The position numbers and the translations under genes were made by a program. From the sequence record LR746311: 64,000 nucleotides of DNA. The stretch is one strand, 5' to 3'. Each line of letters begins with the position of its first letter. Within the stretch, counting starts at the first letter, position 1. Of this stretch, positions 29,976-33,411 are shown one piece after another. The stretch is from Shigella phage vB_SsoM_113. Below the pieces are notes generated by a model that worked only from the letters and a program-made list of their open reading frames with translations, ran no database searches and was not told where the DNA came from.

Positions 29976-30000
29976 GATATATAATTTAGAGGAGACAATC

Positions 30001-30168
30001 ATGTCAGATAAGATTTGTGTTGTCTGTAAAACTCCAATCGATTCTGCATTGGTTGTTGAAACAGACAAAGGTCCTGTACATCCTGGGCCTTGTTATAATT
30101 ACATTAAAGAACTACCAGTTTCAGAAAGTTCGGAAGAACAATTAAATGAAACACAACTTTTGCTATAG
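30001..30168 (+). CDS. small Cys-rich (zinc-ribbon-like) protein (uvsY.-2-like), absent from ORF track
   Basis: Read manually: ATG 30001 after GAGGAG, 55 codons MSDKICVVCKTPIDSALVVETDKGPVHPGPCYNY..., stop TAG 30166-30168; terminator follows. Confidence 0.45.
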   Translation: MSDKICVVCKTPIDSALVVETDKGPVHPGPCYNYIKELPVSESSEEQLNETQLLL

Positions 30169-30191
30169 TGTGACCTTTAGTCTATAGTTTT

Positions 30192-30220
30192 GGCCCTTCC
30201 TTTTTGGTTGGGCCTTTTTT
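30192..30220 (+). terminator. rho-independent terminator ending the uvsY transcription unit
   Basis: GGCCC ... GGGCC stem (30192-30196/30210-30214) followed by TTTTTT. Confidence 0.65.
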
Positions 30221-30223
30221 AAT

Positions 30224-30454
30224 TTAAAAGCTTTCTTCTACTTCATCGTCTGAATCTTCTAATTCAGCTCTTTTTCCTGCCAAAGCATCTCTCACAGAGA
30301 TGTCATCAGTATCTTTTAATTCAGTTTCTTTAACTCTTTTCTTGTAATAAGCTTCAAGTTCTTCTAGACCTTCTATCGTTTGACAAGAGGCAATTTTACC
30401 CATAAATTCATCAATAGAAGCTTCATAAAGAAATTGTTTAAATTCTAGTAACAT
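30224..30454 (-). CDS. uvsW.1: UvsW.1 small protein
   Basis: 76 aa from ATG 30454 (MLLEFKQFLYEAS...); GGAG upstream; track start 30466 is TTG. Confidence 0.8.
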   Translation of the reverse strand: MLLEFKQFLYEASIDEFMGKIASCQTIEGLEELEAYYKKRVKETELKDTDDISVRDALAGKRAELEDSDDEVEESF

Positions 30455-30465
30455 CTTTTTCTCCA

Positions 30466-30481
30466 AAGGGCCGAAGCCCTT
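30466..30481 (-). other. tetraloop hairpin (AAGGGC-UUCG-GCCCUU on - strand) between HNH ORF and uvsW.1
   Basis: Spans HNH stop codon; immediately upstream of uvsW.1 SD. Confidence 0.45.
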
Positions 30482-31172
30482 ATAAATTAACTGTTTTTCT
30501 AAGTATTCTTAGTTTGTACATTGATAATCCAGTAGCTTTAGAAGCATCTTTCATACATTTATACTTAACACCATTTACTTCTATAGGTTTAGCAGCTGGG
30601 TTATTAGCTCCTGAATTATCTGGCATGTTATCTTTAATTTTCTGAATAGATTTAGCGGAATGCTTCCTTCCATACATGCCGTTATTTTTACCCGATTGAT
30701 TGATTGAATGTAATCTTTTAGCTTCTTCAGTCCATTTCGTTGGGTTCATTCTTTTAGTTTTACTAATTTTATTTCCCCATGTAATTGGACGGCTTTTCAT
30801 GAGTTTTGACATATATTGTTTATGTTCTTCCGTATGATGTTTTCCGTAAAATGGATTACCTTCGCCGGATTGAAGTTCTGCCATTTTACGACGTTCCCAT
30901 GCGTAAGATTTATTGACGTGTCTTTCATGAGTATTTGAATTCATTCCCATACATATAACGGCTTTAATTATACCGTAATGATTTGGATGAATTTTAGCTA
31001 AAAGTTTATGGGCTATAAAATGTTCTTCAGCCGTTAGTTCTACTAAATTACACTTATCATCTGTACCACCCATACATCTAGGAATTATATGATGAGTTTC
31101 AGTGTATCCATTAAGGCGAGCCCGATTCTGGGCTCTATTAATTAAATTATCATATATTAATTTATAATTCAA
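30480..31172 (-). CDS. HNH homing-endonuclease-like protein between uvsW and uvsW.1
   Basis: 230 aa; N-terminal HNH core THHIIPRCMGGTDDKCNLVELTAEEHFIAH; two NUMOD3-like repeats (GEGNPFYGKHHTEEHK, GKNNGMYGRKHSAKS); no ATG near N-terminus, candidate TTG start 31172-31170 overlapping uvsW TGA, GAGG 7 nt upstream. Confidence 0.8.
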   Translation of the reverse strand: MNYKLIYDNLINRAQNRARLNGYTETHHIIPRCMGGTDDKCNLVELTAEEHFIAHKLLAKIHPNHYGIIKAVICMGMNSNTHERHVNKSYAWERRKMAELQSGEGNPFYGKHHTEEHKQYMSKLMKSRPITWGNKISKTKRMNPTKWTEEAKRLHSINQSGKNNGMYGRKHSAKSIQKIKDNMPDNSGANNPAAKPIEVNGVKYKCMKDASKATGLSMYKLRILRKTVNL

Positions 31173-32680
31173 AGTTTAACCTCTTTCATCACATAATTAA
31201 ACTTTTCATCAGCATAACGCTGAATACGATCAAGTCCATGTTTTAAAAGATAGTTTAAATGCGAGTATTTTTTAGAAGATGTTTTTGATTTAGAAACTAC
31301 GCCCGCGTCATCTATAAGATCCCAGACCGTTGCGATTGTTTTAGAACCATGCTTACGTAATACGCGACCTATTGTTTGCAATACAATAATTTTAGATTTA
31401 ACACCGTGTGCTAAAACAACGTGATGCAGATTTTTAACTGAAATACCAGTAGAAAATACACCATAACTAGCTACTATAATTATTCCTTTACCGTTTTCAG
31501 CTAAGGTTTTCATTACATTGCGGGTTTCGGTATCAACTTCCCCTGATACGTAATAAACTTTATCGTATTCATTTTTAATTAAATCGAAAATAGCTTTACC
31601 GTGCGATACGTGTTTAAACATGACAAAAGCATTTTCATCTTTTTGCGCAAGCTTAATAGCTAATTTAGCGATCCATTTATTTCTTTTACTGAGCCCAGTA
31701 ATAATTTTTATTTCTTCTTGGTAAGTTTTTCCCTTTAATTTAGTAGTGAACTCATCGGGATAGCGAAGAAAAATACTATTAATTTTTAACTCAGTTACTT
31801 GTCCATCTTCCATTAATTTAGAGGTCGTTACTGGCTTAAATATTTCACCGAACATTCCAACATACTGCATGATATTAGCTTTGCCATCGCGCAATGAACC
31901 AGACAAACCAAATTTAAACATACAGTTATTTAAACCTGATATGATAGATGAAATACTTTTTCCTGTAGCAAGATGACATTCATCATTCATCATCATTCCA
32001 AACTGTGAGAACCATTCTTTTGGTTGTTTTACTACAGTTTGCCATGTACCAACAACGACTGGTGCATCATTTTTATATTTATCATCTTTTGATGCTCCAC
32101 CGCCGATTTTCTTTATCATTGCATGACTGAATAAACGATAGTCAACAAAGTCATCAGCCATCTGAGTTGTCAGAGCAGTTGTTGGAACAATGATAAGAAT
32201 TTTACCTTCATAATTTTCCAAATAATACCGAGCGAGCAAAGCTTGAATTAAAGATTTACCTGCGGATGTTGGAAGATTAAGAATTCTACGACGATTAACT
32301 AATCCTTCGAACACTGCATCTTTTTGATACCAATGCGGTTCAATTCTTTTATTTCCTGAATAGATTTCTAATTTAGAAAGCCATTCATCAAAATCTTTTC
32401 TTGATAATTCTTCTTTTTCGTTAATTTGCGGGTCAATCCAGGCTTTATAGCCAAAGTTATCACAGAACTTTTTAATTTGCCCGACTAAACCGAATGGAAG
32501 AAGGCGATTATAATCTAAAAGACGAATTCGTCCATCCCAGTGGCCATATTTGTATTTCGGATTAAAACGATACCCATCAGCTTCAAAGCTAAAGAAATCA
32601 CGGAGTTCATGAAATGTGCTTTCTTCACAATCAATTCTCACGTGACTAAAATCATAAAAATGTACTTTAATGTCAGTCAT
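31169..32680 (-). CDS. uvsW: UvsW SF2 helicase
   Basis: 503 aa; TSAGKS (motif I) and DECH (motif II). Confidence 0.95.
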   Translation of the reverse strand: MTDIKVHFYDFSHVRIDCEESTFHELRDFFSFEADGYRFNPKYKYGHWDGRIRLLDYNRLLPFGLVGQIKKFCDNFGYKAWIDPQINEKEELSRKDFDEWLSKLEIYSGNKRIEPHWYQKDAVFEGLVNRRRILNLPTSAGKSLIQALLARYYLENYEGKILIIVPTTALTTQMADDFVDYRLFSHAMIKKIGGGASKDDKYKNDAPVVVGTWQTVVKQPKEWFSQFGMMMNDECHLATGKSISSIISGLNNCMFKFGLSGSLRDGKANIMQYVGMFGEIFKPVTTSKLMEDGQVTELKINSIFLRYPDEFTTKLKGKTYQEEIKIITGLSKRNKWIAKLAIKLAQKDENAFVMFKHVSHGKAIFDLIKNEYDKVYYVSGEVDTETRNVMKTLAENGKGIIIVASYGVFSTGISVKNLHHVVLAHGVKSKIIVLQTIGRVLRKHGSKTIATVWDLIDDAGVVSKSKTSSKKYSHLNYLLKHGLDRIQRYADEKFNYVMKEVKL

Positions 32681-32709
32681 GTCTAAATACCATGTAATAA
32701 ATATATCTA

Positions 32710-32717
32710 TATTTATA
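32710..32717 (-). promoter_or_regulatory. late promoter TATAAATA for uvsW
   Basis: Reverse complement of TATTTATA; about 30 nt upstream of uvsW ATG 32680. Confidence 0.6.
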
Positions 32718-32730
32718 CTGAGGAAATATT

Positions 32731-33411
32731 ATGATAGATAAAGATTATATTGCAGAGCTGAAGGCTCTTGATGATAATAAAGAAGCTAAAGCTAAATTAG
32801 CTGAATATGCTGAACAGTTTGGTATAAAGGTCAAAAAGAATAAATCTTTTGATAATATCGTTAATGATATTGAAGAAGCTCTCCAGAAGCTCGCTAGTGA
32901 ACCTATGCCAGAGACTGATGGGTTATCTATTAAAGACTTAATTGATGCTGCTGATGCTGCAGACGGATTAAAATATGACGATGAAGAAGTCAATCCAGAG
33001 GCAGCACTTCTGATTGATTCTCCGGTTAAATCTGACATTAAAATTGAAGTAGTAGAAACGGATAAAATTCCTGAAAATACTGATGTTTTGATTGAAGATA
33101 CTCCTTTTGTTGAAGAAAAATTCGAACAGGCTGTAGCTGAGATTATTGAATCTGAAAAGCCGTCTGTATTTACTCTTCCGGAAAACTTTAGTCCGAATCT
33201 TCAGCTGATTGGAAAAAATCCAGGATTCTGCACTGTTCCTTGGTGGATTTATCAATGGATTGCTGAAACCCCAGATTGGAAATCTCACCCAACTAGTTTT
33301 GAACACGCGTCGGCACACCAAACTTTGTTTAGCTTAATTTATTACATTAATCGTGACGGATCAGTTCTAATTCGTGAAACACGCAATTCTTCTTTCGTAA
33401 CATTAAAATAA
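32731..33411 (+). CDS. inh: Inh, prohead protease inhibitor
   Basis: 226 aa; position upstream of hoc. Confidence 0.75.
   Translation: MIDKDYIAELKALDDNKEAKAKLAEYAEQFGIKVKKNKSFDNIVNDIEEALQKLASEPMPETDGLSIKDLIDAADAADGLKYDDEEVNPEAALLIDSPVKSDIKIEVVETDKIPENTDVLIEDTPFVEEKFEQAVAEIIESEKPSVFTLPENFSPNLQLIGKNPGFCTVPWWIYQWIAETPDWKSHPTSFEHASAHQTLFSLIYYINRDGSVLIRETRNSSFVTLK

Follow-up and report, generated by a model that had tools for sequence, protein, structure and literature searches.

Known free-standing endonucleases and the uvsW junction

The free-standing endonuclease genes of phage T4 use AUG as their start codon except for mobA (GUG, predicted), and half of them have no recognisable translation initiation region (Edgell et al., 2010, PMC2988022). 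Of the T4 Mob proteins, MobE is the one for which strand-specific nicking and high-frequency inheritance are backed by in vivo evidence (PMC2790892). Its gene, located between nrdA and nrdB, is promoterless, and a hairpin in its 5' codons terminates 30-50% of transcripts (Wilson and Edgell, 2009, PMC2790892). Furthermore, translational coupling has been suggested for mobE from its UAAUGA overlap with nrdA (Edgell et al., 2010, PMC2988022). The present work deals with a related gene in a 64,000-nucleotide stretch of DNA from Shigella phage vB_SsoM_113 (LR746311; the whole stretch is hereafter called the window). This gene lies at 30480-31172 on the minus strand, as do all features described below unless otherwise stated, at the junction of the helicase gene uvsW and its downstream neighbour uvsW.1, and comprises 230 codons from a TTG start to a TAA stop. 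With a probability of roughly 0.8, it is read here as a free-standing, intact MobE-like HNH homing endonuclease gene of the T4 Mob family, belonging to a lineage specific to the uvsW|uvsW.1 junction of T4-like phages. Compared sequences are cited by name or by working handle (L and P numbers).

The likeness to T4 mobE extends to several features: (i) both proteins begin M-N-Y-x-K-I-Y; (ii) the start codon overlaps the stop codon of the upstream host gene (TAATGA in mobE, TTTGA in the window) and neither gene has a promoter consensus of its own; (iii) a GC-rich hairpin occupies the same 5' codons (12-19); (iv) NUMOD3-type repeats follow downstream; and (v) both genes are polymorphic for presence and absence among T-even phages. 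On the other hand, the sites differ (nrdA|nrdB versus uvsW|uvsW.1), identity is low after residue ~75, and the window protein ends in an I-TevI-like helix-turn-helix. While mobE has an ATG without a Shine-Dalgarno (SD) sequence and a hairpin of 9 bp followed by CCUUUAU, the window gene has a TTG with an SD and a hairpin of 6 bp with no U-tract. Finally, activity has been proven for MobE and is predicted for the window protein.

Other described systems share parts of this arrangement. T4 mobA-mobD and Hef (Edgell et al., 2010, PMC2988022) are likewise free-standing and combine an HNH nuclease with a variable DNA-binding domain; they often overlap the upstream open reading frame (ORF) without a recognisable translation initiation region, and mobA has its predicted GUG start. 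But none of them has a T4 copy at uvsW and none has been reported with UUG. In the HNH nicking enzyme I-HmuI of Bacillus phage SPO1 (PDB 1U3E), an N-terminal HNH domain is also followed by extended helical DNA-binding modules and a C-terminal helix-turn-helix. The intron-encoded I-TevI is a GIY-YIG enzyme, while the window protein joins a similar DNA-binding module to an HNH nuclease.

Domain organisation of the predicted protein

The initial annotation had described an HNH homing endonuclease gene with two NUMOD3-like repeats, a description borne out by (i) a match to PHROG 655 ('homing endonuclease') at 9e-61; (ii) homology to T4 MobE (BLASTP E = 1e-34; 43% identity over 181 aa, ~77% over the first 60 aa); (iii) the Pfam family NUMOD3 (PF07460), which exceeds its gathering score in two stretches (51.8 bits versus a cut-off of 20.4; 7.6e-14); and (iv) the invariant residues of the HNH region. 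The Pfam HNH family itself (PF01844) stays under its gathering threshold (16.8 versus 21.4 bits, E = 0.0079); in the precomputed Pfam column it is recorded for just one listed homolog (P0067), most relatives having no recorded HNH match.

The HNH catalytic core, YTETHHIIPRCMGGTDDKCNLVELTAEEHFIAH, spans residues 23-55 (31008-31106). In an alignment of 50 homologous sequences, Y3, Y23, H28, P31, C33, G36, N42, L46, E50, H51, A54, H55 and L58 are invariant and H27 is nearly so; the window protein carries every invariant residue. Substitutions at the catalytic His and Asn positions were looked for, and H28, N42, H51 and H55 are kept across the 50 homologs. In comparison with PDB entries, the HNH region aligns with the HNH domains of a group II intron maturase and of Cas8-HNH.

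The first NUMOD3 repeat (residues 94-122; 30807-30893) is the best stretch of PF07460. The second NUMOD3-like helix and a C-terminal helix-turn-helix (residues 157-216; 30525-30704) resemble the DNA-binding domain of I-TevI (PDB 1I3J/1T2T), aligning to its minor-groove helix and helix-turn-helix with 27% identity in the Foldseek alignment. The Pfam I-TevI_DNA-bd family gives a weak match, phmmer aligns the segment to 1I3J at E = 0.0058, and the top Foldseek match of the AlphaFold model (pLDDT 85) is 1i3j_A with a probability of 0.98. An Rfam scan of 30000-32900 returned no intron and no other Rfam family; the gene is free-standing, although some records say 'group I intron endonuclease'.

Reading frame and start codon

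The TTG codon (31170-31172) takes its first base from the end of a uvsW Leu codon and the other two from the uvsW stop TGA (31169-31171) in the context cTTTGA, and the endonuclease ORF thereby overlaps uvsW by 4 nt. Two codons 5' of the TTG there is an in-frame TAA (31176-31178) and, hence, the endonuclease frame cannot start farther upstream. Downstream, neither GTG nor TTG is present in codons 2-33, and the first ATG is codon 34, past His27-His28 of the HNH motif. An SD-like GAGG (31180-31183), made by recoded uvsW codons GAG-GTT, precedes the TTG by a spacer of 6 nt and forms a predicted duplex of -6.5 kcal/mol with the 3' end of 16S rRNA. The TTG-initiated frame of 230 codons, its overlap with the uvsW TGA and the late first ATG were all as initially described; the GAGG is also present inside uvsW, at 6 nt instead of the 7 nt first given.

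The geometry of the overlap would also allow a UvsW-endonuclease fusion by -1 ribosomal frameshifting near the uvsW stop, the endonuclease frame being -1 relative to uvsW. This is barely credible: the in-frame TAA leaves ACT-TTG as the sole shift window, and it contains no slippery heptamer, while the N-terminus matches that of free-standing homologs, which start at an ATG of their own and in some cases lack an ORF upstream.

Initiation at codon 34, the first ATG in frame, would give a nuclease-dead DNA-binding protein lacking His27 and His28. It is highly improbable, less so than frameshifting, since Met34 is unconserved (Ile in Roth16 and L114, Leu in L116), pN is well under pS in codons 2-34, Y3, Y23, H28, P31 and C33 belong to the invariant residues named above, and homologs have an ATG at codon 1. 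Actually, L033-L040, L043 and T4 mobE have ATG at the codon aligned to the window TTG, within the motif M-[ND]-Y-x-K-x-Y. This codon-for-codon alignment with Met1 of the homologs, together with purifying selection on the N-terminal codons, upholds the proposed TTG as the start.

Start codons and Shine-Dalgarno strength among orthologs

Eleven orthologs (the window gene included), 48-85% identical and from phages of different hosts, are located at the uvsW|uvsW.1 junction in every case. All 11 start at the codon aligned to T4 MobE Met1 and all 11 overlap uvsW as NTGA. The start codon is TTG in five (window, L114, L118, L124 and L125), GTG in one (L122) and ATG in five (Roth16, L116, L120, L121 and L123). 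According to the identity matrix, TTG lineages are interspersed with ATG lineages, which yields ~3 independent contrasts. SD strength, taken as the duplex that the 20 nt upstream are predicted to form with the 3' end of 16S rRNA, amounts to -6.5, -6.5, -5.9, -2.8 and -6.5 kcal/mol for the TTG starts (the weak one being L124), versus -1.0 to -3.0 kcal/mol for the six ATG/GTG starts and 0.0 for T4 mobE.

One synonymous substitution, T to A at the third position of the final uvsW codon (CTT to CTA, ATT to ATA), would be enough to yield ATG in the window, L114 and L118; TTG is nevertheless kept between lineages at near-saturated synonymous divergence (pS 0.54-0.70). Judged from these comparisons, the TTG is the real start and looks maintained. 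Weak initiation by design, as suggested in the initial annotation, is plausible and has comparative support, namely the persistence of TTG and the occurrence of a strong SD with TTG only; translational coupling to uvsW, proposed along with it, may be deduced from the NTGA overlap in 11/11 orthologs and the lack of a promoter consensus belonging to the gene.

An ordinary SD-directed TTG start on the late uvsW transcript, with no true coupling and with the overlap as a by-product of the landing site, would account for part of these data. The GAGG with its 6-nt spacer and its -6.5 kcal/mol duplex fits such a start, as does a region from SD to start codon that is only partly paired (probability of being unpaired, 0.38). 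However, six orthologs without a usable SD (0 to -3.0 kcal/mol) still keep the NTGA overlap, which points to re-initiation as the shared mechanism, and a similar arrangement has been read as coupling for T4 mobE (PMC2988022). Independent SD-directed initiation is, in consequence, considered rather unlikely, and re-initiation at the overlapping start is the preferred reading.

The possibility that the ORF is a decaying, non-functional remnant, its TTG a mutated ATG and its translation lost, must be weighed against the same comparisons. Homing endonuclease genes commonly degenerate once fixed, the Pfam HNH score is under threshold, and annotators disagree about the ORF (hypothetical, omitted or truncated to 146 aa). 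Nevertheless, the ORF is full length in every sampled copy and under purifying selection (dN/dS 0.04-0.19, codons 2-34 included), also within the T6-like clade, where the window and ZN18 differ by 4 non-synonymous and 23 synonymous changes. Moreover, all invariant HNH residues are present, five diverged lineages share the TTG, four of them together with an SD, and the gene is polymorphic, not fixed. A remnant is therefore very improbable. The frameshift fusion, the internal ATG start and the pseudogene were all rejected on sequence and selection evidence, and the gene continues to be treated here as intact.

Insertion anatomy

In Tequatroviruses with an empty site, the junction reads ...ATG AAA ACA GTT AAT TTA TAA GGGCTTCGGCCC TTTGGAGAAAAAG ATG, the last codon being the start of uvsW.1. 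In the window, uvsW ends ATG AAA GAG GTT AAA CTT TGA (KEVKL*), while the endonuclease gene ends ...AGA AAA ACA GTT AAT TTA TAA, followed by the same hairpin and the ribosome-binding site of uvsW.1. Two copies of the uvsW tail can thus be distinguished: (i) a left, recoded copy with its stop (31169-31183; GAG GTT AAA CTT TGA = EVKL*, versus the native ACA GTT AAT TTA TAA = TVNL*), which occurs in insert-bearing genomes only and contains both the GAGG and the TTG; and (ii) a right, native copy (30480-30497; AAA ACA GTT AAT TTA TAA), which supplies the last five endonuclease codons (KTVNL) and the stop. The right copy equals the uvsW end of the empty-site phages L007 and L008, and fixed differences are absent from the sequence to its right.

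The GGGC-UUCG-GCCC hairpin GGGCTTCGGCCC at 30468-30479 is the native uvsW/uvsW.1 spacer, found at the same place in L007, L008, OES_C-2 and LH2. A hairpin does exist between the ORF and uvsW.1, as had been noticed, with these coordinates in place of 30466-30481. It does not belong to the insert, being native to the intergenic spacer and standing unaltered in phages that lack the gene; its fold is ordinary compared with shuffled sequences (z = -0.8). Since the native tail and the spacer hairpin are the same in empty-site phages, the endonuclease gene is placed inside the uvsW frame, five codons before its stop. The insertion had first been located between uvsW and uvsW.1; the junction was correctly identified, but a simple 'between' is not accurate, because the ORF sits inside the 3' end of uvsW.

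Comparable tails are found in some orthologs. The L114 endonuclease ends MKQVDL*, identical to the uvsW tail of the empty-site relatives of L114, and that of L118 ends IKQVEI*, with a near-perfect 17-nt direct repeat, ATTAAACAGGTGGAAAT, at both sides of the gene. The tails of the remaining orthologs (e.g., L116 and L120) hold no copy of the UvsW tail. As a separate observation, in many T4-like empty sites (L014, L015, L018-L021, L026, L027, L029 and L030) uvsW and uvsW.1 overlap as (T/C)TATGA, some of them with an AGGTGG SD; relative to phages with this overlap, the endonuclease start occupies the exact position of the native uvsW.1 start codon.

A foreign tract at the 3' end of uvsW

Fixed differences in uvsW were sought by comparing five insert-bearing with three empty-site Tequatroviruses. 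All 31 are located in the last ~140 nt of the gene (31184-31310), none in the other ~1350 nt, and in the same genomes there are zero to the right of the insert. A divergent tract of ~125-140 nt is thus linked to the insert on its left side only. Within it, two blocks can be differentiated: (i) a proximal block (31184-31256, ~75 nt), in which the fixed changes are all synonymous, an I/L site varying among the insert-bearing phages themselves; and (ii) a distal block (~31262-31298), which encodes VVSKSKTSSKKYSH where empty-site phages have VKPKSANTKKKYVH. A 191-nt query made of the tract and the junction retrieved exactly 48 full-length records, the same number as carry the gene.

Two further lineages were compared with empty-site relatives 98-99% identical to them. 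To the left of the insert, identity falls to 64-88% across ~150 nt in Roth16 (versus L014) and to 66-80% across ~250 nt in L114 (versus L019). On the right flank, L114 is 100% identical to its relative; Roth16 is 86% identical over the first 50 nt and 96-100% beyond. Hence, in two of the three lineages the right-hand flank is native sequence beginning with the final 18 nt of the ORF, Roth16 being the exception. By these comparisons, the tracts are foreign to their own genome backgrounds.

A tract of 125-250 nt linked to the gene in three lineages provides an indirect, comparative signature of co-conversion of flanking uvsW. A one-sided flank of this kind would be expected if the enzyme made its cut within the 3' region of uvsW in a naive phage and the break were then repaired with donor sequence up to and across the endonuclease gene; the foreign tract being on the left only, the probable cut site would be located inside the uvsW 3' end. 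In this respect, the nick that T4 MobE makes in nrdB lies over 100 nt away from mobE (PMC2790892), a parallel to the putative distant cut in uvsW.

Four empty-site phages (OES_C-1, OES_C-2, OES_C-3 and LH2) combine an insert-type distal block (VVSKSKTSSKKYSH) with an empty-type proximal block. In OES_C-2 (an Escherichia phage, L112) and LH2 (L113), the insert-type block and empty site are contained in positions 1801-1990 of both sequences. A pattern of this type would be left by a short repair patch made where the distal block was broken, and OES_C-2 and LH2 look like partial recombinants, that is, products of partial co-conversion or of gene loss by recombination. They could be naturally resistant targets.

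Transcription and the 5'-coding hairpin

For the uvsW-endonuclease-uvsW.1 unit, a single match to a T4 promoter consensus was found, a late TATAAATA at 32710-32717, ~30 nt upstream of uvsW. The uvsW gene and the ORF themselves contain neither TATAAATA nor a MotA-type middle-promoter pattern (the MotA search spanned 30224-32700). A promoter proper to the endonuclease gene was considered and rejected, with no late or MotA match and a sigma-70 scan at background level. A near-consensus TATAAATT at 31159-31166, one base off the late-promoter consensus, lies over endonuclease codons 3-6 (N-Y-K-L); if active, it would produce transcripts without the TTG start that could serve uvsW.1, or it may be a mere consequence of the conserved N-Y-K peptide.

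A hairpin, GAGCCC-AGAAUC-GGGCUC (31118-31135), occupies codons 13-18, 37 nt into the ORF, with a stability of -13.2 kcal/mol and z = -2.86. This hairpin and the linked foreign uvsW tract were overlooked in the initial annotation. As MAFFT cannot hold stems with unequal loops in register, a position-rank test and a synonymous-recoding control were used in place of covariation counts. In 12 of 12 genes (the 11 orthologs and T4 mobE), the most stable 30-nt window of the whole ORF is located at nt 23-67; besides the window, a hairpin in this interval was noted in L004, L111, L114, L116 and L118-L125. The stems themselves differ (GAGAGGC/GCCTCTC, AGAAGCC-GAAA-GGCTTCT, TCTCGGG/CCCGAGA, GGGCTCG/CGAGCCC and TTCCCGAGC/GCTCGGGAA), and synonymous recoding of the same peptide is as stable in just 0-8 of 400 trials per gene. 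The conservation of hairpin position is not explained by the protein sequence. In position and structure, the window hairpin resembles the mobE element; it may act by termination, as the weak terminator of mobE does, by ribosome pausing or through RNA stability.

A second kind of structure, a hairpin that masks the ribosome-binding site, like those described for Aeh1 mobE and intron endonucleases, was rejected as a family feature: its fold is context-dependent and the orthologs share none. In a 66-nt context, the window forms an SD-TTG stem of 11 bp over part of the SD and the TTG (-8.7 kcal/mol, z = -2.0); the probability that the SD-to-start region is unpaired varies from 0.22 to 0.72 among orthologs, compared with the 0.38 of the window.

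Distribution, neighbouring genes and database records

A query with the 1.6-kb locus matched 502 phage records, nearly all of them Tequatrovirus, and 48 of these span the insert. Genomes with the empty site are collinear apart from the insert, and the site is empty in 24 of 26 sampled IMG/VR loci. The best database match to the window is 96.7% over 6 kb, and no record is identical. The gene is present in T6 (AP018814, EcT6_00183, 'homing endonuclease') and in Yersinia phage PST ('mobD', with the note 'MobE'), in both cases as a 693-bp coding sequence with the same 4-nt overlap and, hence, the same TTG start. T4 (RefSeq NC_000866) has no ORF at the junction, as the first description had stated; the T4/T6 comparison adds that T6 has it. 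The gene is, therefore, not novel: it is already annotated in T6, PST and dozens of other records at the same coordinates. The labels of PST reflect annotation transfer and not orthology, T4 mobD being located at nrdC.11/mobD.1. The literature searched contained no description of an endonuclease at uvsW/uvsW.1, nor of a UUG-initiated homing endonuclease.

Annotation of the ORF varies across the 48 near-identical records: homing endonuclease, (group I) intron endonuclease, NUMOD3 protein, hypothetical or not called. UniRef holds a version shortened to 146 aa (P0008), presumably since the TTG start was not accepted.

Regarding the neighbours, uvsW is complete (31169-32680; 503 aa; UvsW_N 3.9e-43), and uvsW.1 (30224-30454; 76 aa; PF11637 7.3e-30) has an ATG start with a GGAG SD. 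For uvsW.1, the program-made ORF list and the T6 record use a TTG at 30464-30466 (80 aa); the ATG at 30452-30454, after the GGAG, gives the 76-aa product of the PST annotation, which matches T4 UvsW.1, and the TTG is part of the SD region of this ATG. The T4 RefSeq record NC_000866 (L003) keeps the old fused uvsW of 587 aa: its junction (L003 2165-2215, window 30455-30500) reads TTTA-ATAAGCTTCGG, and that of every other Tequatrovirus reads TTTATAAGGGCTTCGG. A sequencing error in T4 uvsW, masking the uvsW stop and uvsW.1, has been discussed (PMC1524935).

T4 SegE, which targets uvsW, provides a second free-standing endonuclease gene beside uvsW, and T6 and PST carry both. It differs from the present gene in belonging to the GIY-YIG family and in being located at the other end of uvsW, between inh and uvsW. 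While T4, T6 and PST have segE at inh/uvsW, the window lacks it at 32681-32730, between uvsW (minus strand) and inh (32731-33411, plus strand). The segE and HNH genes vary independently among relatives, which align with the window in one ~6.0-kb piece or in two pieces with 0.3-0.6 kb in addition.

Proposed mechanism and significance

The following sequence of events is proposed. (i) The endonuclease gene is carried on the late uvsW transcript, with no promoter consensus of its own. (ii) Ribosomes ending at the uvsW TGA would re-initiate at the overlapping TTG, aided by the GAGG in the recoded uvsW codons, and the outcome would be a low protein level late in infection. (iii) By homology to T4 mobE, the conserved hairpin 37 nt into the ORF may further limit the full-length message or its translation. 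(iv) In a mixed infection, and by homology to MobE, the protein would nick or cut the uvsW 3' region of a phage without the gene; repair from the donor would copy the gene together with ~125-250 nt of donor uvsW 3' sequence, and this tract would replace the recipient version, probably removing the target site. (v) As read from the junctions, the gene supplies a substitute UvsW C-terminus and stop on the left and ends in the displaced native uvsW tail on the right.

A broader interpretation, advanced tentatively and with doubt slightly outweighing confidence, is that the expression of this lineage is held at a low set-point by interchangeable, selected devices: either a weak TTG/GTG start with an SD in the recoded helicase C-terminus or an ATG without an SD, always accompanied by the stop/start overlap and by the 5' hairpin shared with T4 mobE. 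The element would immunise its host by replacing the uvsW 3' end and would borrow the displaced uvsW tail.

Several points weigh against these proposals. An SD of -6.5 kcal/mol at good spacing means that TTG initiation could be independent of uvsW. The association between SD and start codon comprises 11 sequences, perhaps three independent contrasts, and the TTG ortholog L124 has a weak SD (-2.8 kcal/mol). The window hairpin is not followed by a U-tract on the sense strand, where GCCUUAAUGG comes after the stem, and the terminator scan flagged it on the plus (antisense) strand only, where there is a T-rich tail. No donor of the foreign tract was found, the best match to the window tract among the sampled phages, insert-bearing or not, being no higher than 75%. 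Finally, the nuclease activity, target site and translational coupling of the window gene are inferred.

In general terms, the gene is an ordinary new member of a well-known class and nothing categorically new. With it, the free-standing HNH endonucleases catalogued for T-even phages grow by one. Automated annotation has already detected the gene, though not consistently from record to record, and the finding flags inconsistencies in database records, both for the ORF and for the uvsW/uvsW.1 split in the T4 reference. The concept of low expression was established already, and the TTG-plus-SD variant is a small addition to it. The value of the locus is that of a comparative data set, with 11 diverged copies at one site and mixed start codons that track SD strength. 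What this comparison offers is (i) the exact insertion anatomy; (ii) a one-sided foreign flank that locates the probable target; and (iii) a 5'-coding hairpin found family-wide. These bear on how selfish nucleases stay at tolerable levels and on where the uvsW-junction endonuclease cuts. If the broader interpretation were true, the lineage would constitute a comparative, testable case of a selfish gene in which start codon and SD have evolved to compensate each other, and the mobE attenuator would be an ancestral feature of the family.

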